Both the position numbers and the translations under genes were made by a program. The notes under the pieces were generated by a model. The model was given only the letters and a program-made list of their open reading frames with translations. It ran no database searches and was not told the DNA's origin. From Squalus acanthias (lineage: Eukaryota), in contig CM059432.1 of the NCBI GenBank assembly GCA_030390025.1, forward strand, positions 53,694,001-53,758,000: a stretch of 64,000 nt of DNA, read 5' to 3'. Below, piece after piece: positions 1 to 54,517 of the stretch. Within the stretch, counting starts at the first letter, position 1, and every line of letters begins with the position of its first letter.

Positions 1-93
1 ATCCTCTGTCTTCTATCTTTCCTGATCTTACCCCGCCTGGGGTCTCCTCTACGTTGTCTCTGATTTTCATCCGCCATTAATTCATTAGTACAG

Positions 94-474
94 TTAGTCA
101 TGATTATAGATACACATTTGGCTTATGCACCAAAGTCTTATTACACAGATTACATATATCAAATATACGGTCATTACAAGCTGGAGAACTACCAGAGCAC
201 ATGAAATGATACGAACCTAAGGGTGAGCTGATATATAAACCCCAATATCCCACCAGTGTGAATCGTCCCTTATGCTGTCAATTTCAATATCTATTCTCGA
301 GTTGTCTTGCTCCAAAACATAAAATTGCTTTGGGGAGGAGTTCAGTCGCATCACTGAGCTCACTGAATTCCTCAGACAACAGGAGAATGTCGTACCTGAA
401 TTGTACCACATAACTGTGCAGCTCATACTGGATCGTATTGGCTTTTCCCACGCTCTGTTACCTACAAAACACAA
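94..474 (-). pseudogene. env: env C-terminal remnant (membrane-proximal region plus transmembrane helix)
   Basis: Reading through the TAG at 217-219 gives ...IDSIRDDSHWWDIGVYISAHP*VRIISCALVVLQLVMTVYLIYVICVIRLWC... It lies downstream of IN, and the duplicate copy places it just before the PPT. Confidence 0.6.
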
Positions 475-614
475 TTATTACAGTCACAGTTATAATTCAG
501 TATTACAATAATTAGCACGTCGACTAAGTACATACATTTCAAGTGACAATGATGCAAAACAAATAATACAGAAATTGTGAAGAAAGCTACAGTTTATCAT
601 CTAACCAGGAATAT

Positions 615-3600
615 TTATTCTTTCACAGTTTTCAACTGATTGATATGGTACCATTTAGCCACCTTGGCCCTCCCCTTTTTCCCAGGGAATTGGACCAGAT
701 AAACCGAAGGACTGGCCCTGTCAATAATCGGGAAGGGGCCATTCCACTTTGGTTCGAAGCAATGTTGCTTCTTCCCATAGTTTAGTACCATTATAACATC
801 TCCCACTTGATACTCAAATGGCCGGACCTTCTTGTTGAAGTATTTCTTTGCCTGGTTTTTTGATTTGCCTGTTTGTGTAGCTACAAACATGTTAGTTTGT
901 TCTATGTTCTCTACCACCATTTCAAGCCATTTTTGGTTGGCAATTCCCTGTAGTAAGGGTGTGGATGAAGGGGTTAACAGATGGACTGGCATTCGCATTA
1001 GTCGCCCGGTCATAGCCTGGTAGGGTGAGATACCCGTTGTGCTATGCGGGGTGAATCTAATAGCCATTAGACACATTGGCAACATACTGAACCATTTGGT
1101 GGGGTGATCTGCACAAAATTTGTTTAACAGAGTTTTCAGAGTTCGGTTTCCTCTTTCCACTACACCAGATGATTGTGGCTGATGGGAGATGTGAAGTCTA
1201 TGCGAAATACCCATTATCCATTGCAATTTGGTAAAAATTTGGGCGGTAAAGTGTGATCCCTGATCACTATCAACTTGAATTGGCACTCCCCACCTGCAGA
1301 TCACCTCACCCAATAGAAGGCGAGCTGCTGTGAATGCAGTGTTTGTTTTACATGAAAAAGCCTCCATTCATTTAGTAAATTTATCAACTATAACCAGGCA
1401 ATACCGCAAGCCAGAAGGTCCTGTAGGTAAGGGCCCTATAAAATCAATTTGAAGGTGGGTCCACGGCCCATCGGGAGGAGGGGGACTGCGCAACAGTGCC
1501 CGATTAGTGTGGGCACTTGGATTGTGCTGTAAACAGGGTAGACAACGATTCACCCTATGAGTGGCATCTGTGATGCAATCGGGATACCATACAAATTTGC
1601 GTAGTTTCTGAACAGTTGCGTCAGCTGAATAGTGCCCTCCTACCGGATGTGAGTGCAGGAGATCAAAAATTTCGGATGCCATGGATGGGGGAACACAGAC
1701 AACTGGGAGATCAGATGATAGCCACCGCATACGGGGGTTGAACATTAACAGGGGAGCAGCTTCCCCAGACTGATCCGGAGCCAATTGTGTGTCCGCAGCC
1801 CATGGAGTGGGCTGAGGTAACGGACATCCATTCTGATGCCATGCAATAACAACTGCATAGGGGGAATAACTGGACTGGAGGGAAGGGAGGTCAATGTCCC
1901 CACCTTGGATACTCGAGACTGATCCTAAGGGAGGGGTAGGGGCTTGCCAGAGGTCACCGTTAACAGCGGCGTCCTTGGCAGCATGATCTGCCTGTGAGTT
2001 ACCTTGGGTATGTACATCTGAAGAACGTGAATGGGACTTTACCTTACCAACATAGACAGGGGCTGATCGTGAATTTAAAGAGTCCCAAAGGGAAGCAACG
2101 AGGTCTGCATGGAGCAGGGTCTTGCCATCAACAGTACAAAAATTATTCCTAGCATACAGCGGTAAAGATAACAAAGTGTTAATCGCATAGGCACTATCTG
2201 ACCAGACATTAACAGGTATGTCATGAGTAATTTGGATTGCTGTCACCAGGGCTGCAACTTCAGCATATTGGGCAGAGTGGGGAATGCATTTATACTTAAG
2301 TTCTTGGTCAGGCATGACTACTGCCAATCCAGTAAGGGGCTTTCCGTCCCTGTGATAGGATGACCCATCAATATAGACGTTCTGGGCATCACTTAGCGGA
2401 GTAGGAGAGACGGGGTGATGGTCGAACTCCAGTGGTGGAAGGGGGCACTCACAGCTTCCCCCCTCGTATAGTAGGAGCTGAGGTAGTAGAGTTGTCTGCC
2501 TTGGCGTTATTTCCAAATCTCTCTGAGTTAACAGAATTGTCCAGTGACTGAGTCGGGCAGAGGAGACCAAAGTGTCCCCTGGTTTAAGTAAAAGATTCAA
2601 AGGGGTGTGGGGGCTATGTATGATCATTTTGTTCAGCCCAGTAATAAATGTGAAGTGTTTGATTGCCCAAAAAGTGGCTAGCAGATGTCGCTCACACACA
2701 GTGAAATTCTTTTCCACGCCATTCAAAATACGGGAGGCGAATGCGATTGGCATAAGTTTACCCTGTACCTTTTGGCACAGAACAGCAGCAAGACTCTGAT
2801 TGGTGGATCCCACCTCCAGGTGGAAAGGCTTATCTCGGTCAGGGCTTGTCAGGCATGTGGCTTGCATAACAGCAGTTTTAAGGAGGGACACAGCTGTTGT
2901 ATGTTCAGTGGTCCAGTCACAGGCCACAGCGTCCTCTTCACCCTTTAACAGTTTATATAATGGTTTGGCTAGCTCCGCAAATCTGGGAATAAATGAGCAC
3001 TGGTATCCCACTAGGCCCAGGAAGGAACGAAGTGCGGTTTTGGATGGGGGCAATGGTAAACGCTGAATCACCTCAATCTTATGCTGGTCAGGGCTGAGTC
3101 CCTTTTGTCCCACAGAAACCCCTAAAAATGTCACTTCTGGCTGTAACAGTTGTACCTTTTTGGGGTTAATTTTCAGCCCAGCTTTTAGAAGAAGGCTTAA
3201 TAGCTCTTCCATTAATTTAATATGAGTCTTTTTGTCAGGCGTTGCAAGCAAAAGGTCATCAACATACTGCAGCAGGCAGTCGGGTCTCGAAAAAGGTTTC
3301 AGTGCCTGAGCCATCCGTTTGTGGAATATAGTTGGGGTGTTGTGAAAGCCTTGAGGTAAACATGTCCAACTATAACTTTGATCTTCAAAAGTGAAGGCAA
3401 ACTTGTACTGATCCTCTGACTTAACATGAATACTCCAGAAGCCGTTTGAAATGTCAAAGGTGGAGAAGTAACAGGGGCAACACGGTGGCATAGTGATTAG
3501 CACTGTTGCCTCACAGCGCCAGGGACCCGGGTTCGAATCCGGCCTCGGATGACTGTCTGTGTGGAGTTTGCACATTCTCCCCGTGTCTGCGTGGGTTTCC

Positions 3601-4647
3601 TCCGGGTGCTCCGGTTTCCTCCCACAGTCCAAAGATGTGCGGGTTAGGTTGATTTGGCTATGATAAAAAATTGACCCTTAGTGTTAGGGGGGGATTAAAT
3701 ACGTGGGGTTACGGGGATAAGGTGGGATATGTGTTGGTGCAGGGTGGGATATGTGTCGGTGCAGGCTCGATGGGCCGAAATGGCCTCTATCTGCACTGTT
3801 GTGATTCTGTGAAGTAGCAGCTACCTGGTGGAATCTGGGACAGGAGAGTGGGTGTCTCCCGAACAACAGGGGCGCAAGCTGGGGTTACCGAATTAAGCTT
3901 ACGATAATCAATTGCTAGACGCCAGCTATCATCTGGTTTCTTAACTGGCCAGGTTGGAGAATTAGTGGTAAAAGTGCCAGTGCGGATAACACCCTGCTTT
4001 AACAATGAATTGATAGTAGACCGAACATAAGGTTTACTCTCAGCCGGAATGGAATACTGCTTAACAGGAGGGTGGGAGGGTCCATTAATCTCCTCATCTC
4101 CCGACATCCTACCACAATCATGTTTGGACTTAGCAAAAACCTCTGAAAATTTATGAATTAATGTATTAACCATGGGGTCTTCAGTCCCGGGAAGGGCGAA
4201 ATCTTCGGGTTTTTTAATTGCATATACCGAATGGGCATCCGAAATAGGTGTCAGTGGTCCGTCATTAAAGTGCCACTAAACACACTCACTAGCGTAGTCG
4301 AGGACAGCACAGTGTTTATGCAGCGTGTCACTTCCGAGGATACCTTTCTGGTCATGGGTGGCCATATATACAGGAGAGGGGACATCGACGGAATTCCCAT
4401 CAATGGACAAGACTGTGGAGCTCAATCCCTGATTAACTAACTGAGTAGAAGCATTAAAGCCAGAGAGGTTTAGGGCGGTGCCAGAATGGGAAAAGGGAGC
4501 GGGGTCATGTAAAATAGTCACGGCAGAACCGGAATCCACAAGCGTAACATGGCGGTGGCCTCCATGATCAGTGGCCCGGACAAAGGGTCGTCCGTCCTCC
4601 CCGTACCAGACAGGAAAAGAAGTGGTCACCGTGGAGGCCTCTGACCA
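615..4647 (-). pseudogene. pol: pol: protease, RT, tether, RNase H, integrase
   Basis: PR LVDSGS; RT WRLAIDYRKLN, LPQGFHN, QYVDD; degenerate RNase H (PIAFASRIL...CERHLLA); second RNase H (YIDGSS, SAQYAE, WSDSAY, GNSQAD); IN H..H/C..C, IDFIGP, DSDQG, SSGVVER. In-frame stops at 4276 and 1368, plus a SINE insertion. Confidence 0.92.
3475..3810 (+). mobile_element. tRNA-derived V-SINE (HE1-like) inserted in RT
   Basis: A/B boxes (TGGCATAGTG, GGTTCGAATCC), V-domain TGTGGAGTTTGCACATTCTCCCCGTG, CR1-like tail. TSD GAAGTA(A/G)CAG at 3465-3474 and 3811-3820; removing it rejoins RT. Confidence 0.9.
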
Positions 4648-7600
4648 TCACTGGGGCCGTGAGTCTGGGAGCGCATCTCCACTGCGAGAAACAGCCAAAA
4701 TGTTTTGCCCCCCCCCCCCCCCCGTCTGACTGTGCTTCATGGCCTCAACTACTGCTGAAAGGTGCTCGAGCTGCTGCTGCACAGAATTTAAATCAGACCC
4801 GTTACCTTCACGGATTGGGGGTTGGTAGCGTGGGCCATTTGGACGTCGACTATTGCGGCAGTCGCGAGCATAGTGTCTGGGCTTATAACAGTTATAACAG
4901 ATTACGTGGCGTTTGTCTCCCGACTGGGGAGGGGTTTGTGGAGTCAGAGGGCCCTCCACCACTGACATTTTGGACTCAGTAGGGGTGAGGGACGATTTAA
5001 CTCGGTCCCAAACTCGAATGCAAGCGTCCTTCAGATCAGCCCACGGGGTTCCCTGATGAACAGTAATACCAAGAGCGTCCCTTACAGGGGGTAAGAGAGC
5101 ATCAATGAATGTCAGCTTAAATCCCTCCGTGTCTCAAAACTCTTGACCACTACAGTTTTTCTGGGACTGGTTGTACAAATCATACAATCGATTTGCAAAG
5201 GCTACAGGATGCTCATTAGCCTTTTGCTGGGCGTCCCCAGCCTCATGGGTGAAATTAACTGCGTCCATGCCCAAACGGGAACAAACTGAATCCATAACAT
5301 CCCACCACCACTTACTTTTATCATAGATTTCCCGTGAAAGTGATAATTTGAGTTCCCGTGAAATGCATGACAACAGAACTTGTTTTAAGTCTGTCCACTC
5401 TAACTCAGGGTGACAGTGACGGAATGTACCCCACTAAAGTGGCAGGGGGTTGGGAACCTGAGGAGGGAGACAGAGGAAAGGGAAATAAGGATAAAAGCTA
5501 AAGACAGGAAGGAGAAAAACAAAAGTAGAAGGCAAAGAACTCAACGGTTTAAATCAAACATGGTCACAGTAAATAATAATTCATATAGGTCTGAGAGCGT
5601 TAAAAAAACAAGCCTGAAGGCTTTGTGTCTTAATGCAAGGAGCATTCGGAACAAGGTAGATGAATTAGCTGCGCAAATAGAGGTAAATGAATACGATTTG
5701 ATTGGGATTACAGAAACATGGCTCCAGGGTGGCCAAGGCTGGGAACTCAACATCCAGGGTTATTCAATACTTAGGAAAGATAGGCAAAAAAGAAAGGGAG
5801 GTGGGGTAGCATTGCTGGTTAAAGAGGGGATTAACACAATTGAAAGGAAGTATATCAGCTCTGATGTGCGGAATCTGTATGGGTAGAACTGAGAAATAAC
5901 AAGGGGCAGAAAATGTTAGTGGGAGTGGTATATAGACCTCCAAACAGTAAAACGGAGGTTGGGGACAGCATTAAAAGGGAAATTAGAGGAGCATGCAGTA
6001 AGGGCACAGCAGTCATCATGGGTGACTTTAATTTACATATAGATTGGGCTAACCAAATTAGTAAAAATACTGTGGAGGAGGAATTCCTAGAATGTTTACG
6101 AGATGGTTTTCTGGAACAATATGTCGAGGAACCAACCAGAGATCAGGCCATCTTAGACTGGGTATTATGCAACGAGAAAGGATTAATTAGCAATCTTGTT
6201 GTACGAGGCCCCTTGGGTCAGAGTGATCATAATATGATAGAATTCTTCATTAGGATGGAGAGTGAAGTAGTTGAATCAGAGACTAGGGTCCTGAATTTAA
6301 ATAAAGGAAACTACGATGGTATGAGGCGCGAATTGGGTAGGATTGATTGGGGAATGTCACTCAAGGGGTTGACGGTGGATAGGCAATTGCAAACATTCAA
6401 AGACTGCATGGATGAACTACAGAATTTGTACATCCCAGTGTGGCATAAGAATAAAACAAAAAGGGTGACTCAACCGTGGCGAACAAGGGAAATTAGGGAT
6501 AGCATAAGATCCAAGGAGAGGGCATATAAATTGACCAGAAAAAGCGGTAGCCCTGAGGATTGGGAGCAGTTTAGGATTCAACAAAGGAGGACAAAGGGAT
6601 TAATTAAGAAGGGGAAAATAGAATATGAAAGTAAGCTTGCTGGGAACATAAAAACTGACTGTAAGAGCTTTTATAGATATGTGAAGAGAAAAAGATTAGT
6701 GAAATCAAGTGTAGGTCCCTTGCAGTCAGAAGCGTGGGAAGTTATAATGGGGAACAAAGAAATGGCAGCCCAATTAAATGCATATTTTGGTTCTGTCTTC
6801 ACAAAGGAGGACACAAATAACCTCCCAGAGATGTTGGAGAACATATGGTCTGATGAAAGGGAGGAACTGAAAGAAATCAGTATTTGCAGGGAAATGGTGT
6901 TGGGGAAATCGAAGGTATTGAAGGCCGATAAATCCCCAGGGCCTGATAATCTACATCCTAGGGTACTTAAGGAAGTGGCCCTAGAAATAGTAGATGCATT
7001 GCTGATCATCTTCCAACATTCGATGGAATCTGGAACTGTACCCATGGATTGGAGGGTAGCTAATGTTACCCCACTATTCAAAAAGGGTGGTAGAGAGAAA
7101 GCGGGGAATTACAGACCGGTAAGCCTGACATCGGTAGTGGGGAAAATGCTAGAGTCCATTATAAAGGATGTAATAGCTGAGCATTTGAAAAACAGTGACA
7201 GGATCGGACAAAGTCAACATGGATTTACAAAAGGTAAATCGTGCTTGACTAATCTACTGCAATTTTTTGAGGATGTAACTGGGAAAATAGATAAGGGAGA
7301 ACCAGTAGATGTGGTGTATTTGGACTTTCAAAAGGCTTTCGATAAGGTCCCGCATAAGAGATTAGCGGGTAAAGTTAAGGCACATGGGATTGGGGGCAAG
7401 GTATTGACTTGGATAGAGAACTGGTTGGCGGACAGAAAGCAGAGAGTAGGAATTAATGGGTCTTTTTCCGAGTGGCAGGCAGTGACTAGTGGGGTACCGC
7501 AGGGATCGGTCCTTGGACCCCAGCTATTCACAATATACATTAATGATCTAGATAAGGGAATTAAATGTAATATCTCCAAGTTTGCAGATGACACAAAGCT

Positions 7601-9458
7601 GGGTGGGAGTGTGTGCAGCGAGGAGGATAGCGAGAAACTCCAGGATGATCTGGACAGGTTGGGTGAGTGGGCAGAAGCGTGGCAGATGCAATATAACGTG
7701 GATAAGTGCGAGGTTATCCACTTTGGTGTCAAAAACAGAAAGGCAGACTATTATCTGAATGGCAATAGATTGGGAGAAGGGGAAGTGCAACGAGACCTGG
7801 GTGTCCTTGTGCACCAGTCGCTGAAAGTAAGCATGCAGGTGCAGCAGGCGGTGAAGAAGGCAAATGGTATGTTGGCCTTCATAGCGAAAGGGTTTGAGTA
7901 TAGGAACAGGGATGTCCTGCTGCAGTTGTACAGGGCCTTGGTGAGACCACACCTTGAGTACTGTGTGCAGTTTTGGTCGCCTTATCTGAGGAAGGATGTT
8001 CTTGCCATGGAAGGAGTTCAGCGAAGATTCACAAGGCTGATACCTGGGATGGCAGGAATGACATATGAGGAGAGATTGAGTCGATTGGGCTTATACTCAC
8101 TGGAGTATAGAAGATTGAGAGGGGATCTCATCGAAACATATAAAATTCTGACAGGTCTGGACAAACTAGATGCAGGAAGAATGTTCCCGATGGTCGGAGA
8201 GTCCAGAACCAGGGGTCATAATCTACGGATAACGGGTAAACCATTTAGGACAGAAATGAGGAAGAATTTCTTCACCCAGAGAGTGGTGAACCTGTGGAAT
8301 TCTCTACCACAGAAGGTAGTTGAGGCGAGGTCATTAAATATATTCAAGGGTGAGTTAGATATATTTCTTAAAGCTAAAGGTATCAAGGGATATGGGGAGA
8401 AGGCAGGTACAGTGTACTGAGTTTAGATGATCAGCCATGATCTCATCGAATGGCGGAGCAGGCTCGAGGGGCCGAATGGCCTACTCCTGCTCCTATCTTC
8501 TATGTTTCTATTAATCACTTGTTAGGCCGACTGGGTTCGTCCCCCAGTTTATTGGCCCCATTTCTTCGGCTAGTGCTTTGCACTCTGCCGGGGTCAAACT
8601 TCTACTGGTGGTAGTAGTAGTTACTTCCACATTTGGGGGCAGGTTGTAGGCTACAGAAGATGTATCATTATCGAATTCATCATCCGAGGGTGTAGGGTCA
8701 CCAAATTGGGTGGTAGTAGTGACTATATTAACCTGCTTGGTATCTACCGGGGCAGTTTGTCCTGGATAGGGAGGTGGAGGCGCAGAGGGTGAGGGGCTAT
8801 TTTGGCAGATGGGGTTATTATTGCACTGGGCTTTTCTTGTTAGATTATTCCAGTTAATACCGGGATCCCCTGGTTTAAGGCGAGTAACGGCCGCAACAGC
8901 AGCTGTTTGTCTCCCCAGCTTTCCCTTCAATTCCATAATTTTTAATTCGCAGTGAGTATGGTCAGTGCTCACCAGAGGGGGGTTTTCAAGTAATTCTCTC
9001 AAGGCCCCCCTGGCGTCCTCAAGTTGTGAGATCAGGGATTCATTTTTTATTTTTAAAGCCTTGTTATCCTCAAACACCTGATGGTGGCGTCTTGAGGCAA
9101 GTCGTGCCTCATCTGCCAAGGCTTGTTCTTGATGGAGAAGTGTACAGACTGTGGCATGTCGGCCTTGCCAGTCCTGTAAGTCTCTTGCAAGTTGTGCATT
9201 TCTCTCTTTCAGGAGTACAACTTCGCCTCCCAAGCAAACAGCACACAAGTGGGCCGCGTAAGCCAGCCTATTTCTGGCTTCCTTAACTTTGCATTTCTTC
9301 GCACCCACCTGGGATGCTATCATGCCCCAAATCTCAGAGTAACTCTTCTCACTCTTCTCATCTCCCTGCACTATTCCGATTACTGCTCGGGCCCCCGGAA
9401 CCCCTAACTTATCCGAAAGACTGTTCGCAACCTTTTCTCTAAAATACGCATCTGCCAT
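4648..9458 (-). pseudogene. gag: gag, split by the CR1 insertion at about 5433-8510
   Basis: ATG at 9458 just downstream of the PBS; coiled-coil N-terminal half; PPPY and PSAP late-domain-like motifs; MHR-like QQKANEHPVAFANRL; CCHC knuckle CYNCYKPRHYARDC. Confidence 0.85.
5433..8510 (+). mobile_element. CR1 LINE, 5'-truncated at the ORF1/ORF2 junction (APE endonuclease + RT)
   Basis: ORFs 5410-5886 and 5913-8420 (one frameshift): NARSIRNK, ITETWL, GDFN, SDH, GVPQGS, FADD; (CTATGTTT)-type tail. Confidence 0.95.
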
Positions 9459-9550
9459 TTCGTTTTTACTTTACAACCCGATAAGAATGCCTAGTAACAT
9501 TATAGACTGAACCCGTCCTCAACTCGTTTCGACCACAACAACCCTGTTAC

Positions 9551-9570
9551 ACTCCTGGCTCGGCTCGCCA
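9551..9570 (-). promoter_or_regulatory. Primer-binding site complementary to tRNA-Arg(ACG)
   Basis: Minus strand TGGCGAGCCGAGCCAGGAGT, 3 nt after the LTR ...CTACA. Matches the recalled tRNA-Arg(ACG) 3' end ACTCCTGGCTGGCTCGCCA with one inserted base. Confidence 0.8.
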
Positions 9571-9573
9571 ATT

Positions 9574-10137
9574 TGTAGAGATTCAGGTATCTCTGGTAAA
9601 CAGGATCGAGTGCAAACCAATATGGTGGGTATATTGGGGGAAAAATTCAGTATCGCCCCATTTGAGGCGCAATTATCGGCCAGGCGCAAAGATTAGCGCC
9701 TGGCGCTAATTATCGCCTCCGACTGCAAACTTGACTTTTATCGGCCCTGGAGGTGATTGGAGCGCTAAATCAGGCGCTACACATCTGTCTTAAGGCGCAA
9801 AGGCCGAGGAGCGAGGCGCTAACTCAGAGCGCTGGCGAAGCTCATGTGATGTCAGTCAGCAATGGAACACAGACACAATGGCGCCGGCCAGTTCTTAAAG
9901 GGGAGGGTTGATCTTGCTTTCCATCCACATCCTGCTCATTGCAGCCTTGAATCTTGGCCTGGAGAGACCTGTACATCAAATCTGCTGGAAAGAATAATGG
10001 AGAGGCTGAAGGAAAGAGCTCAGAGTGCAGCCCCCACAGTCTCTTCTAAATCGATACAAGGAAGGGCAAATCAAAATGAACCTGCAAAGTGCTGCTCAGT
10101 ACCCAAAACTCCTTCACACAGCGTTGAATCTCTCCAG

Positions 10138-10168
<31 letters not shown>

Positions 10169-11717
10169 AGAATGCATGGTTCAAAAATGTCACCAACAAA
10201 AAAAGGCAGGAAGCGTTCGCCTTTAAATAGCGCTCCCCCAGTCCCTTCCTGACTGCAAAACGCTCCCCTCAACCTGTCGTTGTTAGCATCAGGCGGTAAG
10301 GCAGGGGGCGCCACTCAATATCCGCTCCGGGACGCTACCGGTGCGTTGCGCACTCGACTGATGTCACGATCTGCCGGCGCAGGAGATCGTGGCGGTACTG
10401 TTTAGCGCCGCCGCAAAATGTCTAGTTAATTTCGCGAGCGGCGCAAACATCGCCGCGCCCGGGCGCTAGTTGCTTTGCGGCCCATTAGCGCCCTCTTAAG
10501 GCGATAACGGGAGGCGCAACCAACTGAATTTTTCCCCCATTGTGTTTCATCAGAGTTTAGGACGGAATATAACACACTAGTAATACAGCAAAAACATATG
10601 ACCGTAACAAGCAGCTTGTACCGGACCCGATCAGACAGACGGCTGGCATGCGTGAGCAGTTCTCTGGCGTCTGGCCCCTCTCTCTCTCTCTCTCTCTCTC
10701 TAGGGCCTTCGATGGTGAGCATGGGATCACTCTCAAAAGAGCATTCGACCAGCCCAACTTCTCTTTTTAACTTCTGTTTGGCTCTCCCTTCCACCGTCTG
10801 TGTGCAAGCCCTTGGGGTGTCACTTTTTATTCTCTTTTTAGGGGTGGGCCTGAGGCCACGTTATTGACAAGACCATTTAACCTATAGAGGTTCCTCCAAA
10901 ACTTCATCAACCAGTGATAGCTCAAGTTCTTTGTGTTGGTGCTTGGATGAAAGTCCTCCCCAAAGAGGGTCTCATTACTTCATCCTTATTTTTACATTTT
11001 GAAGGTTCCTCCATTGGAATCCATCTTATCTCTTTTTACTCTCTCCCCCTTAACCCAGCAAGTACAAGGCCCGGCCCTGTCCTTCTGGCCCCAGCCAGAG
11101 CTGTCGCACATTAACCAGTCGCTATCTCACCATTCTGACCTTCATGATTCCCTCCCCTTTTCTGCTGTGATCGTTTCTCTCAGAACTTTTACATAGCCAG
11201 ACTTCCCATGAATTACGCTGCTTTCAGTGTTCAGTAGCTGTTGTTTTATACCTTTTTTTCCCTTTCAAAATACATGGCAACTTGCAGCTGCTTGGGCTAT
11301 CTCACCTTCACCTAACAAATGGCCCATTCTAAGATGGATACCTTCGCCTCCTCAAATTCCTTTCATTCTATGTCTTTTCCTAATTAACTTTTAATTATCT
11401 TCTCAAGCAGTTCTGCTAAACAAAACTCCAAATTCTATCTGTGGAGATTATAATATGATTATTAGTAATAATGGAAGAAACATAGGTTGGGCCTTTACTG
11501 GCCAAATTAAAGATACATTAACAAAGTCAAAACCCTAACTTACAAACAACAGATAACTAGCCTGGCAGGACCATCCTATGGGCCCCCGTGTGGAATGTTT
11601 ATGTTTCACCTAATCTAACTGATTAAAAAGACTGTCATAAATTCTAATGCAAGCTTTCCAGGAAAATGAAACTTATCATTTAAACACAGTATTTTTAGGC
11701 ACCCCTAGTTTCTAACA
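9574..11717 (-). repeat. LTR (about 1.24 kb after removing the MITE)
   Basis: Starts TGTTAGA right after a PPT-like AAGGTGGGGAC (11718-11728) and ends TCTACA before the PBS. Candidate TATAAAA near 11245 and AATAAA near 10826. Confidence 0.75.
9636..10538. mobile_element. PIF/Harbinger-type MITE
   Basis: TIRs GGGGGAAAAATTCAGT / ACTGAATTTTTCCCCC; 3-bp TSD ATT; homologous inverted copy at 41677-42569. Confidence 0.85.
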
Positions 11718-12430
11718 GTCCCCACCTTGAGAGGGAGAAAAACTCTATTTCGACCTCTCATTTACAAACCTCTACCAACCATGCCAATTCTAAATTATTG
11801 GTTCGACGGTTCAATTCACTATTCCGGTGTTCCAATTCTGCCCCGCCTGGGGTATCCTCTGTCTTCTATCTTTCCTGATCTTACCCCGCCTGGGGTCTCC
11901 TCTATGTTGCCTCTGACTTTCATCCGTCATTAATTCATTAGTACAGTTAGTCATGATTATAGATACACATTTGGCTTATGCACCAAAGTCTTATTACACA
12001 GATTACATATATCAAATATACGGTCATTACAAGTTGGAGAACTACCAGAGCATGTGAAATGATACGAACCTAAGGGTGAGCTGATATATAAACCCCAATA
12101 TCCCACCAGTGTGAATCGTCCCTTATGCTGTCAATTTCAATATCTATTCTCGAGTTGTCTTGCTCCAAAACATAAAATTGCTTTAGGGAGGAGTTCAGTC
12201 GCATCACGAGCTCACTGAATTCCTCAGACAACAGGAGAATGTTGTACCTGAATTGTACCACATAACTGTGCAGCTCATATTGGATCATATTGGCTTTTCC
12301 CACGCTCTGTTACCGACAAAACACAATTATTACAGTCACAGTTATAATTCAGTCTTACAATCATTAGCACGTCGACTAAGTACATACATTTCAAGCGACA
12401 ATGGTACAAAACAAAGAATACAGAAATTGT
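11718..12430 (-). repeat. Second copy of the provirus 3' internal region (env remnant + PPT), upstream of the LTR
   Basis: 11854-12430 is a near-identical direct repeat of 1-579. Confidence 0.9.
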
Positions 12431-12545
12431 AGGCTTTCTGTGCATGTGTGAGTATGTTCCTGACCGGAGTCATGAGCCATGTCATGAGGGGATAAGTCTT
12501 GTTGCCTAGTAGCCAGCCTTTGACTTGCCATGGTGGTTCAAATAC

Positions 12546-14163
12546 AGGGATTGAAGGCCGATAAATCCCCAGGGCCTGATAATCTACATCCTAGGGTACT
12601 TAAGGAAGTGGCCCTAGAAATAGTAGATGCATTGCTGATCATCTTCCAACATTCGATGGAATCTGGAACAGTACCCATGGATTGGAGGGTAGCTAATGTT
12701 ACCTCACTATTCAAAAAGGGTGGTAGAGAGAAAGCGGGGAATTACAGACCGGTAAGCCTGACATCGGTAGTGGGGAAAATGCTAGAGTCCATTATAAAGG
12801 ATGTAATAGCTGAGCACTTGAAAAACAGTGACAGGATCAGACAAAGTCAACATGGATTTACAAAAGGTAAATCGTGCTTGACTAATCTACTGCAATTTTT
12901 TGAGGATGTAACTGGGAAAATAGATAAGGGAGAACCAGTAGATGTGGTGTATTTGGACTTTCAAAAGGCTTTCGATAAGGTCCCGCATAAGAGATTAGCG
13001 TGTAAAGTTAAGGCACATGGGATTGGGGGCAAGGTATTGACTTGGATAGAGAACTGGTTGGCGGACAGAAAGGAGAGAGTAGGAATTAATTGGTCTTTTT
13101 CCGAGTGGCAGGCAGTGACTAGTGGGGTACCGCAGGGATCGGTCCTTGGACCCCAGCTATTCACAATATACATTAATGATCTAGATAAGGAAACTAAATG
13201 TAATATCTCCAAGTTTGCAGTTGACACAAAGCTGGGTGGGCGTGTGTGCTGCGAGGAGGATACTGAGAAACTCCAGGATGATTTGGACAGGTTGGGTGAG
13301 TGGGCAGAAGCGTGGCAGATGCAATATAACGTGGATAAATGCAAGGTTATCCACTTTGGTGTCAAAAACAGAAAGGCAGACTATTATCTGAATGGCAATA
13401 GATTGGGAGAAGGGGAAGTGCAACGAGACCTGGGTGTCCTTGTGCACCAGTCGCTGAAGGTAAGCATGCAGGTGCAGCAGGCGGTGAAGAAGGCAAATGG
13501 TATGTTGGCCTTCATAGCGAAAGGGTTTGAGTATAGAAACAGGGATGTCCTGCTGCAGTTGTACAGGGCCTTGGTGAGACCACACCTTGAGTACTGTGTG
13601 CAGTTTTGGTCGCCTTATCTGAGGAAGGATGTTCTTGCCATGGAAGGAGTGCAGCGAAGATTCACAAGGCTAATACCTGGGATGGCAGGAATGACATATG
13701 AGGAGAGATTGGGTCGATTAGGCTTATACTCGCTGGAGTATAGAAGAATGAGAGGGGATCTCATCGAAACATATAAAATTCTGACAGGTCTGCACAAACT
13801 AGATGCAGGAAGAATGTTCCCGATGGTCGGAGAGTCCAGAACCAGGGGTCATAATCTAAGGATAAGGGGTAAGCCATTTAGGACAGAAATGAGGAAGAAT
13901 TTCTTCACCCAGAGAGTGGTGAACCTGTGGAATTCTCTACCACAGAAGGTAGTTGAGGCCAAGTCATTAAATATATTCAAGAATGAGTAAGATATATTTC
14001 TTAAAGCTAAAGGTATCATGGGATATGGGGAGAAGGCAGGTACAGGGTACTGACTTTGGATGATCAGCCATGATCTCATCGAATGGCGGAGCAGGCTCGA
14101 GGGGCCGAATGGCCTACTCCTGCTCCTATCTTCTATGTTTCTATGTTTTTCTATGTTTCTATG
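12546..14163 (+). mobile_element. 5'-truncated CR1 (RT only)
   Basis: ORF 12530-13990; FADD changed to FAVD; (CTATGTTT)n tail. Confidence 0.95.
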
Positions 14164-40223: not shown

Positions 40224-40509
40224 GACTTAACCCTTATGTTACTTTATTACTAAAATTTAAACTTATTTATCTTAGGTCCAGGAGTTAAGTCCCTGAAAAC
40301 AAAATATAAAATCGAACCTACCTTTTAAATTCCCTCTACCCCTAAAGGTTAGAGGAGGTGGGAGGGTGGGAGTCACTACTAGTGTAGTGTCTCGGGTTTA
40401 GCAACCGCTCCACCTATATACGGGTACCAATGAATTGGCCCCGCCCCCTGCCTTTGAAAAAGCCCGCGAAGCTCTTACCCCGCTGGGGAAAAAGGCCACG
40501 TAGGTGAGT

Positions 40510-41082
40510 TTATTGACTCACCTCAGGCCTCTGCCGCTCCAACCAGCTCCGCTCCTCCTTCCCCGCTGCCGACCGCTCTGTGGGAGAGAGAAAGAAAGAA
40601 AGGCTCCTCCTCCCCCGCTGTCGACGCTGGTCTGAGGCCTACCTGAGCCTCGGGCCTCCCTTTATTGACTCACCTCAGGCCTCTGCCGCTCCAACCAGGT
40701 CCGCTCCTCCTTCCCCGCTGCCGACCGCTCTGTGCAAGAGAGAAAGAAAGAAAGGCTCCTCCTCCCCCGCTGTCGACGCTGGTCTGAGGCCTACCTGAGC
40801 CTCGGGCCTCCCTTTATTGACTCACCTCAGGCCTCTGCCGCTCCAACCAGGTCCGCTCCTCCTTCCCCGCTGCCAACCGCTCTGTGGGAGAGAGAAAGAA
40901 AGAAAGGCTCCTCCTCCCCCGCAGTCGACGCTGGTCTGAGGCCTACCTGAGCCTCGGGCCTCCCTTTATTGACTCACCTCAGGCCTCTGCCGCTCCAACG
41001 AGGTCCGCTCCTCCTTCCCCGCTGCCGACCGCTCTGTGGGAGAGAGAAAGAAAGAAAGGCTCCTCCTCCCCCGCTGTCGACG
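40510..41082 (-). repeat. 152-bp tandem monomers (about 3.7 copies) in the CR1 5' UTR
   Basis: Unit TTATTGACTCACCTCAGGCCTCTG... recurs at about 40510, 40662, 40814 and 40966. Confidence 0.95.
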
Positions 41083-46140: not shown

Positions 46141-47506
46141 TGTAGCAGTTACTTTATATTTTATCTTATTTTTACTTTTATCACCACCATAACTGCCCAA
46201 AATTTCAGTGTAATTCTATCTGAGCTAAATCCTTAAAGAATATGTATTCTAAAAGCAAGCAAAGCAATCAGCTGCACTGAAGAAAAAGGTTTCTATTTCA
46301 AATCAACTTGGTGTACGTTTGGAACTTTATTCCCGACAAACAATATACACTCATACCCTGGAACACCGAGCTGAAGGGATAATTACTAGTCCTAGCCCCT
46401 TTAGGGCTACCCCGGATCAGGCGTATTCCTCAGACGTTCACTTTCAACTTAAGTTTGAGGTAGCCGAATCCTAAAGACGCTTAATTGGGTCTAAAGGTCT
46501 GAACTCTCTCTCCCTAAAGGAAAGGAACAACCTGAAAATGTTACCGTCCTCCAGATAGCACTTTTAATAAGTTTAGCTAGACTGTAACGTTCTGGATATT
46601 ATGAGGGTCCGGAAAACTCCCCCAGAATTCTGCAACACCTCACCAAAGAGTGTACAGACATTGAGTTTGCGAGTTTGATACAGAAGTCTTATGTGAGATA
46701 ATTCTAAAAATATATAGATTTATTAAAGAACCGACATGTAATTTACATTTGGTGAGTCAATCGCAACATTAACAGTTCCAAAAAGAGAAAGCTTACAATT
46801 CTATTATCAGAGAACTTACTCTCAAATCTTAACTTCCCTACAGTTTTACAGTTTAGTTTTGTGCAGGATATCCACCAAAATCAAAATCAAATACCTTTGA
46901 TCCCCGAGGTACAAAGAGTTGTAGACTTACAGAGCCACCTCTGAAGCCGAGAGTCGCTTTGCCCCTTTACAGCGAGTCTACTATCCCATTTGAGAGTTCA
47001 ATATTTATACCCTTTTCCAGTGGTATTTCCTTTAAGGTTTTCTGTTGATGTAAGCTAATTATCTCTAGTCATGTTTCTGCTGACCCCTGCAATTCTTACA
47101 GTCACCTCAGCTGGTAGCATTTCAGAATTATGTCTCTTCTCTAGGTGTTCTAAGTTTACCATAAAAAATGGTGAAACAGCAGGTGCGTTTTACTTGATGT
47201 CATTTTTACGAAGGCAGATGTTTGTGCTTCTTTACGAAGTGTAAATTAGAACACCTTAACCAGGGTGAACCATTGTCTTGTTCCGAAAGATTCAGACTGT
47301 CGGGAGCCTTTAACCTTCTGTTTCAATAAGGTTATTGATTCAGTGTCAACAACTATCTTATCTCTATGGCCAGAATGCTTTCACAGCTTTTTCATAGTTA
47401 GGTTTCTAGATTTCCAGACCCAGTTCATCATGTTTTAATAAGGCCAGAATTCTTTCATAGAAGGTGTATTTTTCTGAATAGGTTATATGGCTTATTCCTT
47501 CACACA
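46141..47506 (-). repeat. Probable LTR of the foamy-like element (distal boundary uncertain)
   Basis: PPT-like AAGAGGGG (47507-47514) followed by TGTG; TATAAAT near 47005; AATAAA near 46720; possible end ...CTACA at 46141. Confidence 0.5.
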
Positions 47507-48149
47507 CCCCTCTTGACCAAAAAATGAACTCGAGCATCAAGACAGAGTTTGGTCAATGTTACTAATAAGGTTACAATAGCACATTAATTTCACGAGATTC
47601 ACAAGAGCCTAATCATGTGCTACATGAAAATTCCCTTTAAGTCATCCCAGGACAATGTTGTGCCTTATTTTAAATTGAACACAAATTAAAAGGATGATAG
47701 GTACATTGTTATGCAATTAGCGAAACAACATGTACTTAGAATGTCCAATTGGCAGATGTATGTTCCGTAGAGGTGAGTTATTCATACGAGTCAAGGAGAC
47801 GTCATTTGGAACTAGCTGAAGCTTGACATGCTGTTCCTTTGATCCAGCGTGAGGACAGATTCTTGTTTTCGTAAAGGCCTTGCCAGGAGCTCAGTTGATT
47901 CCTTCTTCATCCGCAGTGTTTTCCTCCTTCGTTGAAGTAACTCATTGATCTTTACATGTTTTGGTTGTGGCTTTTTGCAAATCCAATTCCTGAGGCGTTG
48001 CCAAACATCGTGTGGAGGAGTCGGCGACACCGTCTGGCTGACCGTCATCAGTAGTTCGATCACATCCATTTCCTGTGTCGTGCTCCAAGCTGGGTCTTGA
48101 AATACAGTGTACTACTGCACCTTGTATTGTTCCTCCATTTCGGTATCCC

Positions 48150-49128
48150 GCAGGACATCTTTTGAGATTGTCTATGGAGACAGTTTAAAGAATATGCTTG
48201 CCATTCGACTGATTAATATGTATTTTAACTGTTCTTTCGTTAATAACAGAATGTATTTGAACAGGTTTTTTCTACTTCGGTCTTAAACCAGGTTTTTGCT
48301 CGAACTTCTTTTCCTGTACCCATTCTCCTGCTAGGGGTTGCTATGCTTTGTTTGTCAATTTTTTCTGCCTATTTGCCTCCCTTATCCTCTGATCAATTTG
48401 ATGAATCTCCTCTGTTACTTCTTTTTTAAAATCTAACTGTCGCTGTCGGGTCAAGGAATCAGAGAGTGTAGAGGCATCTCAACCCCATACATCAGATAAT
48501 ATGGAGTTTTAGGGGATACTGTCCCTGATGCAGATGTGGGCACATTATTAAGTGATAGCTGCACCTCCGGAATGACGGTGGTCCACTTATTTCCCCTGAT
48601 TCTCAACAGTTTGACCAATAGCTTTTTTACTTACTGGTTTTTACGTTCCACCAGCCCCGCTGATTGCGGATGACGTGGTGTGCTGTGCTCTAACCCAATC
48701 CCCCTTTGTCCGCAGTAGTCTTTGAAGACCTTGGAGACAAAGGCTCCGCCTTTAACGGAGTGTAAGATTTTGGGTGCACCAGCTACAGTAATTATGTCAG
48801 TAATAGCATTGGCGAGTGCGTTTTCCGAAACAGTTTTTGTGGGGACCAGCCAGCAGAAGGAAGTGCATCCATCTACACAAACGAGAACATGCCTGTATCC
48901 CAAAGACGGGGGAAGTGGTACAATAAAGTCAATGAAGAATTTTCCCATTGGCTCATCAGCTTTCACAGGAGCCAATGGTGGTGGCTTAATTAGTGATGAC
49001 TTATTGGTTAAATAGCATGGCTCACAATTTGCCACGTATGTTTTACAGGCCTTAAGCATGCCTGGCCACCAATATAAGGGAGTCAATTTGCAGAATGTTG
49101 TTCTGGCTCCACAATGTGCTTGACCGGG
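48150..49128 (-). pseudogene. pol: Foamy-virus-like integrase (endogenous spumaretrovirus-like fragment)
   Basis: AHCG..LYWWPGM..CEPCYLTN..KFFIDFIVPLPPSLGY..HSTPRHPQSAGLVERKN..KLL..KW..PEVQLSLNN..LTRQRQL..VQEK..LRPK*KKP..TVSIDNLK, collinear with the recalled prototype foamy virus integrase. Confidence 0.85.
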
Positions 49129-49749
49129 CTTTCGTGCATGTGCATCGTATGCGGGAACCTGGAACTCGTAGGGCCATTCACAGCATTTATGACAGCATAC
49201 GCTGTGTGTAGGCTGTCATAGGCCCCGTAAATTCCAGGCCAATGTGTTAGCACTCAAAAATCTTGGGTCAGCTAATTGCATATTTAGTCATAGATCCAGG
49301 TGCAGACGGGGCAAGTATGGGGAGCACATGGGACCGGAAAACCCGCTGGCCTGATCCTGATGTAAGTGCTGGGAATGTGTCTACCCATGACCTCTGGTTC
49401 TGAGCTGTCAAAGTTCGCAGTGCCAGGAAGTGATTACTTAATTTAAATAAGATGAGTGGGTGACCCACCTGCCATCCTATTTGGGAACCTCCTCTTCTTC
49501 TCTGCAGCTTACATTGGTGGATTTCCATTGGGAAACCCATAGATGCCAATAACATGGCAGTGAAAAGAAGTAAATAAGCAAACTGGCATAAAGGCTCATG
49601 AGAACCAATGTACCATGAGGACAAAAAAAACAGGCCAAAAAGAAGTTTCTTTGTAGTCCTTTATATTTACTTACCTGTGCTGATCATTTCCTGGATCCCC
49701 AGCTACAATGGAGGTTATTTTCTCTAACTTTAGAAAGTAAAGAAAAAGA

Positions 49750-51815: not shown

Positions 51816-54517
51816 ATAGAAACATAGAAGATAGGAGCAGGAGTAGGCCATTCGGCCCCTCGAGCCTGCTCCGCCATTTAATGAGATCATGGCTGATCAT
51901 CCAAATTCAGTACCCTGTCCCTGCTTTCTCCCCAGATCCCTTTAGCCTTAAGAAATATATCTATCTCCTTCTTGAATATATTTAATGAATTGGCCTCAAC
52001 TGCCTTCTGTGGTAGAGAATTCCACAGGTTCACCACTCTCTGGGTGAAGAAATTCTTCCTCATTTCTGTCCTAAATGGCTTACCCCTTATCCTTAGATTA
52101 TGACCCCTGGTTCTGGACTCTCCGACCATCGGGAACATTCTTCCTGCTTCTAGTTTGTCCAGACCTGTCAGAATTTTATATGTTTCGATGAGATCCCCTC
52201 TCATTCTTCTATACTCCAGCGAGTATAAGCCTAATCGACCCAATCTCTCCTCATATGTCATTCCTGCCATCCCAGGTATTAGACTTGTGAATCTTCGCTG
52301 CACTCCTTCCATGGCAAGAACATCCTTCCTCAGATAAGGCGACCAAAACTGCACACAGTACTCAAGGTGTGGTCTCACCAAGGCCCTGTACAACTGCAGC
52401 AGGACATCCCTGTTCCTATACTCAAACCCTTTCGCTATGAAGGCCAACATACCATTTGCCTTCTTCAACGCCTGCTGCACCTGCATGCTTACCTTCAGCG
52501 ACTGGTGCACAAGGACACCCAGGTCTCGTTGCACTTGCCCTTCTCCCAATCTATTGCCATTCAGATAATAGTCTGCCTTTCTGTTTTTGACACCAAAGTG
52601 GATAACCTCGCATTTATCCATGTTATATTGCATCTGCCACGCTTCTGCCCACTCACCCAACCTGTCCAAATCATCCTGGAGTTTCTCGGTATCCTCCTCG
52701 CAGCACACACGCCCACCCAGCTTTGTGTCATCTGCAAACTTGGAGATATTACAGTTAGTTTCCTTATCTAGATCATTAATGTATATTGTGAATAGCTGGG
52801 GTCCAAGGACCGATCCCTGCGGTACCCGACTAGTCACTGCCTGCCACTCGGAAAAAGACCAATGAATTCCTACTCTCTCCTTTCTGTCCGCCAACCAGTT
52901 CTCTATCCAAGTCAATACCTTGCCCCCAATCCCATGTGCCTTAACTTTACACGCTAATCTCTTATGCGGGACCTTATCGAAAGCCTTTTGAAAGTCCAAA
53001 TACACCACATCTACTGGTTCTCCCTTATCTATTTTCCCAGTTACATCCTCAAAAAATTCCAGTAGATTAGTCAAGCACGATTTACCTTTTGTAAATCCAT
53101 GTTGACTTTGTCTGATCCTGTCACTGTTTTCCAAGAGCTCAGCTATTACATCCTTTATAATGGACTCTAGCATTTTCCCCACTACCGATGTCAGGCTTAC
53201 CGGTCTGTAATTCCCCGCTTTCTCTCTACCACCCTTTTTGAATAGTGGGGTAACATTAGCTACCCTCCAATCCATGGGTACATTTCCAGATTCCATCGAA
53301 TGTTGGAAGATGATCAGCAATGCATCTACTATTTCTAGGGCCACTTCCTTAAGTACCCTAGGATGTAGATTATAAGGCCCTGGGGATTTATCGGCCTTCA
53401 ATCCCTGTATTTGAACCACCATGGCAAGTCAAAGGCTGGCTACTAGGCAACAAGACTTATCCCCTCATGACATGGCTCATGACTCCGGTCAGGAACATAC
53501 TCACACATGCACAGAAAGCCTAAAATTTCTGTATTCTTTGTTTTGTATCATTGTCGCTTGAAATGTATGTACTTAGTCGACGTGCTAATGATTGTAAGAC
53601 TGAATTATAACTGTGACTGTAATAATTGTGTTTTGTCGGTAACAGAGCATGGGAAAAGCCAATACGATCCAATATGAGCTGCCCAGTTATGTGGTACAAT
53701 TCAGGTACGACATTCTCCTGTTGTCTGAGGAATTCAGTGAGCTCATGATGCGAATGAACTCGCCCCTAAAGCAATTTTATGTTTTGGAGCAAGACAACTC
53801 GAGAATAGATATTGAAATTGACAGCATAAGGGACGATTCACACTGGTGGGATATTGGGGTTTATATATCAGCTCACCCTTAGGTTCGTATCATTTCACAT
53901 GCTCTGGTAGTTCTCCAACTTGTAATGACCGTATATTTGATATATGTAATCTGTGTAATAAGACTTTGATGCATAAGCCAAATGTGTATCTATAATCATG
54001 ACTAACTGTACTAATGAATTAATGACGGATGAAAATCAGAGGCAACATAGAGGAGACCCCAGGCGGGGTAAGATCAGGAAAGATAGAAGACAGAGGATAC
54101 CCCAGGCGGGGCAGAATTGGAACACCGGAATAGTGAATTGAACCGTCGAACCAATAATTTAGAATTGGCATGGTTGGTAGAGGTTCATAAATGAGAGGTC
54201 GAAATAGAGTTTTTCTCCCTCTCAAGGTGGGGACTGTTAGAAACTAGGGGTGCCTAAAAATACTGTGTTTAAATGATAAGTTTTGTTTTCCTGGAAAGCT
54301 TGCATTAGAATTTATGACAGTCTTTTTAATCAGTTAGATTAGGTGAAACATAAACATTCCACACGGGGGCCCATAGGATGGTCCTGCCAGGCTGGTTATC
54401 TGTTGTTTGTAAGTTAGGGTTTTGACTTTGTTAATGTATCTTTAATTTGGCCAGTAAAGGCCCAACCTATGTTTCTTCAATTATTACTAATAACCATATT
54501 ATAATCTCCACAGATAG
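51816..54517 (-). repeat. Inverted duplicate of about 11435-14145 (LTR U3 part + PPT + env remnant + spacer + CR1 RT)
   Basis: Paired ORFs 51887-53422/12530-13990, 53649-53882/12070-12303 and 54019-54225/11727-11933. Confidence 0.95.

Follow-up and report, generated by a model that had tools for sequence, protein, structure and literature searches.

Positions 46,141 to 49,128 of a 64,000-nucleotide stretch of Squalus acanthias DNA (GenBank assembly GCA_030390025.1, contig CM059432.1, 53,694,001 to 53,758,000 of the forward strand; hereafter the window) hold the 3′-terminal 2.75 kb of an endogenous retrovirus (ERV) of the foamy virus clade that is dead, front-truncated and read from the minus strand. 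The copy is one ordinary dead fragment among many. Its relatives across the genome indicate that the family lost env and then likely spread in germline cells, gutted copies likely being packaged and integrated by helper Gag-Pol. The family falls into three tiers: a small number of proviruses with env, gag-pol copies without it, and "minis" of about 5 kb (complete ones about 5.0 kb). The minis consist of a long terminal repeat (LTR), primer binding site (PBS), start of gag, RNase H, integrase (IN), env stub, polypurine tract (PPT) and second LTR; they are without protease and reverse transcriptase (RT), yet they multiplied. Many separate insertions with their own target-site duplications (TSDs) were found, together with deletions and inactivating changes held in common, the pattern of env-less and non-autonomous ERVs.

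Env-bearing proviruses of the window family exist, and one complex env deletion was common to nearly all other sampled copies. Its junction was intact in 91 of the 98 rows without env that reached it, the window copy included, and 13 others fell short. When compared to the env-bearing copies, window positions 48200-47505 correspond to the beginning of env, to a 34-nt island out of its middle part and to the region that follows env; an earlier note, made from the letters of this DNA alone, had not recognised 48138-47505 as the remnant of a deleted env. The env stub was 83-89% identical to the env-bearing copies as far as the cut. A genome search with foamy Env gave at least 11 matches in six regions, all six in the same family, a count that is a floor owing to the stricter first look of this search. 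Env of the env-bearing copies matched PF03408 and the solved gp130 in the Protein Data Bank (PDB).

Among 110 copies sampled by IN, 38 were type-A minis, 20 type-B minis and one another mini, pol continued upstream in 30, and 21 were unclassified. In type A the first 116 nt of gag, and in type B 58 nt, are followed directly by the RNase H start, the gag portion retained by the minis ranging from the first 43 to the first 116 nt; at least three independent deletions gave the minis. Exact 21-nt junction patterns occurred genome-wide 42 times for type A, 48 times for type B and 135 times for the unbroken gag site, controls giving 0. Scaled by the exact-match rates in the sample, this corresponds roughly to about 106 and 64 minis of types A and B. 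Splicing as the source of the junctions was rejected, as the ends are not GT-AG and type A has a 3-nt microhomology. Since copies found through IN necessarily retain IN, two further sets of 30 loci each were drawn, one with the leader and one with the PPT side as query, partly overlapping the IN sample. Half of the leader-sampled loci (15/30) were minis, all 15 resuming at the RNase H start, and none of the 30 went from gag directly to the PPT region; one gag-deleted copy, which looks private, passes from pol into the LTR. Long IN sequence lay upstream in 27 of the 30 PPT-sampled loci, the remaining three ending earlier. Beyond pol codon 672 or so, the env deletion was the only multi-copy deletion seen in these samples.

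The second acidic residue of the DDE catalytic triad is replaced in the window IN, and the variant is inherited. The residue aligns with D185 of prototype foamy virus (PFV). Of 58 minis, 35 had this Asp replaced (25 of the 38 of type A, 10 of the 20 of type B), as did 4 of 30 gag-pol copies and, in this form, none of six env copies (Fisher p 3e-5 for minis against gag-pol copies). A genome without RT and with a dead IN is unable to copy itself, and such copies were therefore probably mobilised in trans. As the variant occurs in two mini types of independent origin, co-packaged RNAs appear to have recombined with each other. The rows nearest to the window IN and stub were type-A minis, at a non-CpG distance of 2.3-2.8%, and the nearest LTRs were likewise of type A. 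We infer that the window copy is a type-A mini whose 5′ half was lost after insertion, along with some host DNA; being nearest to minis and having the same inherited Asp loss, it was likely copied in trans.

The earlier note had expected foamy-like ERVs to be rare, an expectation overturned by the genomic IN search, which gave at least 150 close copies (150/150 scored at 90% or more). The genomic LTR search gave 5351 first-look candidates, 40 of which were scored, all at 93% or more; candidates numbered 433 with the leader as query and 467 with the PPT side. First-look candidates are not copy numbers; the searches suggest several hundred internal copies, with LTRs far more numerous. Most insertions sampled by LTR were solo LTRs: all 16 single LTR matches examined were of this kind, their 4-bp TSD being perfect in 12 and carrying one mismatch in the other 4. 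Two-LTR copies carried the PBS GTTGGCGCCCAACGTG and the PPT AAGAGGGG(TG), with a perfect 4-bp TSD in 11 of 12. LTR length classes ranged from about 970 to 1320 nt (L023, L033, L116 and others), apparently through U3 duplications; lengths were about 1135 nt in type-A minis and about 1270 nt in two gag-pol copies. A C13 LTR pair 3.9 kb apart (L040, G000:C13:82376348-82383335) was rejected as an element, being a family solo LTR that is tandemly duplicated together with its identical flanks, the unit measuring 3858 nt.

Two-LTR copies could be dated, as the earlier note had proposed, the Kimura two-parameter (K2P) distances of LTR pairs spanning 0.018-0.059. Values for 11 minis lay at 0.023-0.059 (non-CpG 0.016-0.049), and one gag-pol copy gave 0.018. 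LTR pairs of four env copies differed by 3.0-5.5%; non-CpG divergence was 2.4-4.5% in env copies and 1.6-4.9% in minis. At the rate of 0.5e-9 assumed in PMC10699275, the family insertions are likely to be roughly 18-60 Myr old, the rate itself being uncertain. Sequencing runs of eight organisms contain window sequence. In organisms A and B a contig matched the flank at about 95%, departed exactly at 46371 and then gave 389 letters of different sequence; we read this as an empty orthologous site. It follows that the window insertion postdates that split and is by itself uninformative on the deep age of retroviruses, a question on which the earlier note held fish examples to be informative: the insertion looks tens of Myr old and is absent from the site in two related organisms. 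Contigs of organism D, which is perhaps the source species of the window itself, span both junctions, one of them with only 26 letters on the LTR side.

The window IN, at 49125-48161 of the minus strand, is broken and is closest to PFV IN. As the earlier note had it, the reading continues through stops (codons at 48633, 48343, 48274 and 48187) and a frameshift to TVSIDNLK, located at 48184-48161; the frame change is due to a 31-nt deletion near 48477 that is private to this copy. The stop-to-stop open reading frame (ORF) of the open part has 194 aa, of which the initial 30 are host DNA. Motifs follow the PFV order as exact or close matches (LYWWPGM, KFFIDFIVPLPPSLGY, STPRHPQS, VERKN, LRPK-stop-KKP and TVSIDNLK), in agreement with the earlier note, except that PFV LTREEEL has a weak counterpart, LTRQRQL. 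The best PDB match of the open part was PFV IN (E 3.5e-46), followed at a distance by Ty3 (4.1e-9) and human T-lymphotropic virus 2 (HTLV-2; 3e-4), and with X for stops the C-terminal part matched PFV IN alone among PDB entries (E 3e-4). A purine tract that differs from the 3′ PPT, and of which the window form was the commonest (90 of 117 rows), lies at the codons for WVQEKK; these align with VQERV of PFV, the site of the central PPT in that virus.

In the IN tree the window sequence grouped with simian foamy virus (SFV), PFV, feline foamy virus (FFV), the amphibian foamy-like proteins of Pelodytes and Pleurodeles, and P0030, with support of 99/99; five named proteins with too little IN were omitted from this tree. 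Identity of the family RT was 49-51% with mammalian foamy viruses and 50% with a piece from Scyliorhinus torazame, as compared to 40% with Callorhinchus, 37% with a teleost protein and 25-34% with Gypsy-type sequences; the family is nearer to mammalian foamy viruses than to the Callorhinchus and teleost proteins tested. The S. torazame RT (GCB66461.1) falls in the same supported group as the family and mammalian foamy viruses. The corresponding gene model, P0063, fuses a foamy-type RT piece to a PR/SET domain and is probably a gene-prediction chimera. Support was weaker in the whole-Pol tree (84/91), where the chimeric S. torazame protein is a misaligned long branch, and when the window IN was used for a word-based search of longer proteins, the one match obtained was uninformative. 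Other copies carry Gag_FV_central, Spuma A9 protease, RT, RNase H and IN SH3. The Spumavirus Gag central domain PF20672 was detected in two of them, the window copy being without gag, and the A9 protease PF03539 in another (26.3 bits, cut-off 21); none of three family Gag pieces scanned had a zinc knuckle (Cys-His box). A likely cartilaginous-fish host, suggested by the earlier note from the letters, agrees with a CR1 LINE protein in the window that is 78% identical to Chiloscyllium and 75% to Hypanus, as against about 42-57% to birds and turtles.

An origin of the integrase in a Gypsy/Ty3 element or a non-spuma retrovirus, with a superficial foamy likeness, can be considered very improbable. 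The Pfam domains H2C2 and rve of the window piece occur in Gypsy too, and the IN and RT trees were built without named orthoretrovirus, lokiretrovirus, coelacanth endogenous foamy virus (EFV) or cartilaginous-fish EFV (CFEFV) references. Against this stand the E-values for PFV and Ty3, 37 orders of magnitude apart, the placement with foamy viruses in both trees, and the foamy-specific Gag, protease and Env domains of the family. The foamy assignment made in the earlier note is thereby upheld.

In the copy read, gag and the protease share one frame, a single codon lying at the border, and no Met precedes the DTG motif. Exact genome-wide matches to the border gave TGA 111, TGG 32 and TGC 4 times at this codon. 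The layout makes a read-through or fused Gag-Pol likely, in contrast to mammalian foamy viruses; an engineered in-frame PFV Gag-Pol was infectious (PMC3196705). A 1687-aa single-ORF protein, P0030, which groups with foamy viruses, carries protease, RT, RNase H and IN after about 520 residues and may represent the fused Gag-Pol of a different lineage. Within the family, an internal deletion in gag marks a further multi-copy lineage (L242-L261, L208, L210), some members sharing pol deletions as well and often having a sense codon at the gag-pol border.

Like the exogenous foamy viruses PFV, SFV and FFV, to which its Pol is 38-40% identical over RT-IN and its IN 43-48%, the family has the Gag central domain, A9 protease, foamy Env, a Lys-type PBS, a 4-bp TSD and the GGGTG PPT border, and its env start overlaps the end of pol. 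The tRNA-Lys-type PBS, the 4-bp TSD and the GGGTG border between PPT and U3 are foamy features (cf. PMC5210030, PMC6955096). Unlike these viruses, the family has gag and pol in one frame with TGA or a sense codon at the border, so that the DNA layout is not that of spliced Pol expression; it has no perfect central copy of the PPT, a different purine tract occupying the corresponding codons; most copies are env-less; and only about 550 nt separate env from the LTR, with no clear tas/bel2. In six degraded copies these 550 nt held a broken frame running into U3 and no consistent TATA. The Gag-binding motif WxxW was absent from the Env leader, the leader having two Trp at a spacing of five residues in two of the three copies read. 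On account of the Pol layout and the lack of a central PPT copy and of WxxW, we file the family as a foamy-clade ERV and not as a canonical foamy virus. Wang, Chen and Cui reportedly described the CFEFV, endogenous foamy viruses of cartilaginous fish, in 2023; these have the host class in common with the window family. Shark foamy-like ERVs have been published (PMC5512871, PMC10699275, PMC4422223), and foamy-related pol, a 4-nt TSD and the PPT border motif are shared with CmiFLERV, AciFLERV and ERV-Spuma.0-Sca (PMC5512871, PMC5210030, PMC10699275). Unlike cichlid-type foamy ERVs, the family has a small genome without a large accessory block.

Env-less superspreading is said to be a known rule, traced to Magiorkinis in 2012, and MuERV-L and IAP/ETn/MaLR are env-less or non-autonomous ERVs. 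As in those, env loss was followed here by a rise in copy number, deleted derivatives were likely trans-mobilised and solo LTRs are in excess; unlike those, the window family stems from a foamy-clade virus, and its derivatives retain a long internal pol segment. PFV budding needs Env, and env-deficient PFV re-integrates intracellularly in culture (PMC3185757). Without Env, capsids of the window family would similarly fail to bud and would re-integrate in the same cell. The minis would be mobilised in trans, their 3′ pol segment being retained as an RNA signal, like the foamy cis-acting sequence CAS-II, and not as an enzyme. Foamy genomes require three blocks in cis: CAS-I extends to the first 200 nt of gag, CAS-II covers about 1.8-2 kb in 3′ pol (PMC5035957, PMC3185757) and CAS-III lies at the PPT and LTR (PMC5035957). 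The segments retained by the minis appear to parallel these three blocks, and this correspondence would best explain why gutted copies keep a useless integrase gene. Like minimal foamy transfer vectors (PMC3185757, PMC5035957), minis retain LTR, PBS and gag start, 3′ pol, PPT and LTR; unlike the vectors, they are natural, degraded and furnished with an env stub, and the function of their signals is putative.

Several observations weigh against this account of env loss and mobilisation in trans. The window copy's own 5′ junction is gone, so its class had to be inferred, and the DNA tree of 55 IN stretches (2 of 57 rows dropped for low cover) was poorly resolved with classes mixed. The central purine tract does not reproduce the PPT. 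With gag and pol in one frame, Pol may need no RNA signal for packaging of the kind it needs in PFV. Env-bearing copies overlap the minis in age, so that spread via env-bearing helper particles is conceivable. All gag-to-RNase H junction types are in frame (four of four, three of them independent; chance 0.04), a result not expected from a pure RNA-signal model. Finally, omega of variants common to at least three copies was 0.35-0.37 in mini IN and 0.92 in the gag-pol class, a comparison based on few events in mixed classes, by which relaxed selection on mini IN is not demonstrated.

The in-frame junctions and the omega of about 0.35 for common variants of mini IN speak for a different explanation, in which the minis kept RNase H-integrase since translation of the fused frame of Gag start, RNase H and integrase was required, whether to make a useful protein or to let the RNA escape nonsense-mediated decay. 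It is further favoured by distinct classable deletions being in frame in 9 of 16 cases versus one third expected (p 0.05) and by the fact that, of 20 loci examined with a sense codon at the gag-pol border, 15 are members of the gag-deleted lineage. However, 60% of minis inherited the replaced catalytic Asp and hence have no active integrase, some multi-copy deletions within pol are out of frame, and the low omega may come from helper genomes via recombination; we regard this explanation as unlikely. Alternatively, env-less and mini genomes may have spread by cell-to-cell reinfection in particles of env-bearing relatives, like defective interfering genomes. The env-bearing copies of the family, overlapping in age and under purifying selection (singleton omega 0.27-0.53), would suit such a route, whereas their low number (the 11 or more env matches, a floor, versus hundreds of env-less copies), their basal position in the IN DNA tree and the fact that the dated gag-pol copy has the least diverged LTR pair (1.2% non-CpG) argue against it, and reinfection too seems improbable.

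Loss of env followed by intracellular spread with help in trans, the reading that we favour, would make the family look like a natural, large-scale version of env-deficient foamy retrotransposition, which has been described as a cell-culture phenomenon (PMC3185757), in viruses described as hard to endogenise (PMC10581153). Its hundreds of independent deletion products would map the RNA segments that a foamy-clade genome must keep for copying, and the single-frame gag-pol bears on the time of origin of the unusual foamy Pol expression. A further proposal, tentative and in our estimate somewhat doubtful, is that a shark foamy-clade virus with single-frame Gag-Pol turned into an intracellular retrotransposon that repeatedly yielded natural "foamy vectors", converging on the layout CAS-I + CAS-II + CAS-III. 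If true, the packaging signal embedded in pol, unique to foamy viruses, would be as old as the split between shark and tetrapod viruses and would predate spliced Pol expression. In the literature searched, whose reach did not extend to Wang 2023 and Chen 2021, no description was found of env-less, mini or vector-like foamy expansions in sharks, and the same search gave none of a same-frame foamy gag-pol layout.

Features of the window copy and its borders (window positions; minus sign, minus strand)
Feature	Position	Strand	Remarks
Old host interspersed repeat fragment	49126..49241	-	adjoins the cut 5′ end; ~80% to many loci, continuation missing
Integrase, open part	48634..49125	-	end of zinc-binding domain and catalytic core; Pfam H2C2, rve; PFV IN E 3.5e-46
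Integrase, C-terminal part (SH3)	48161..48633	-	four stops and private 31-nt frameshifting deletion; terminates in TVSIDNLK
Purine tract AGGAAAAGAAG	48305..48315	-	WVQEKK codons, aligned with PFV VQERV; differs from 3′ PPT
Tail of pol frame, overlapping env start	47942..48160	-	ORF 47942-48184; other copies have the same tail
env 5′ stub, cytoplasmic start of leader peptide, ATG 48138	47862..48138	-	ends before the leader membrane anchor
34-nt mid-env island	47830..47863	-	5 of the 6 env-bearing loci match it in mid-env (91-100%)
Post-env region, possible degraded accessory frame	47505..47829	-	holds 3′ PPT AAGAGGGG (47514-47507) and GGGTG border
3′ LTR, 1133 nt, TGTGAAGG...CCCTTCA	46372..47504	-	length class found in type-A minis
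Host flank	46141..46371	.	outside the LTR

The PPT and the TGTG announced in the earlier note are present, and its LTR of 1.3 kb proved to be shorter (1133 nt), with bounds set by 39 other genomic matches, most covering query 7-1139. An LTR extending to 46141 was rejected: 46371-46141 is host flank, found also in organisms A and B and without a match in the fetched family loci. The GGGTG border is a feature of fish foamy ERVs (PMC5210030). At the other end, the 49125/49126 junction was bridged by a contig from another sequencing run, and neither the window nor the 30 kb beyond it yielded the 5′ half (5′ LTR, PBS and upstream part).

Elsewhere in the window, positions 1-12430 (minus strand) hold a separate young provirus, with LTRs at 1-578 and 11854-12430 that are 96-98% alike and a CR1 LINE interrupting it. 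The independence of the foamy-clade fragment from this provirus, proposed in the earlier note, was borne out by the zinc-knuckle Gag and murine leukaemia virus (MLV)-type IN tail of the provirus, which has no DNA match to the viral parts of the family. Its IN end at 615 directly adjoins the LTR, and it seems to be env-less too. A 2.6-kb inverted duplication (11435-14023 / 51929-54517, 98%) contains CR1 sequence and an LTR copy of the same provirus, and three to four tandem 152-nt units, 97-98% identical, lie at 40509-41082, at the 5′ end of a CR1 element.

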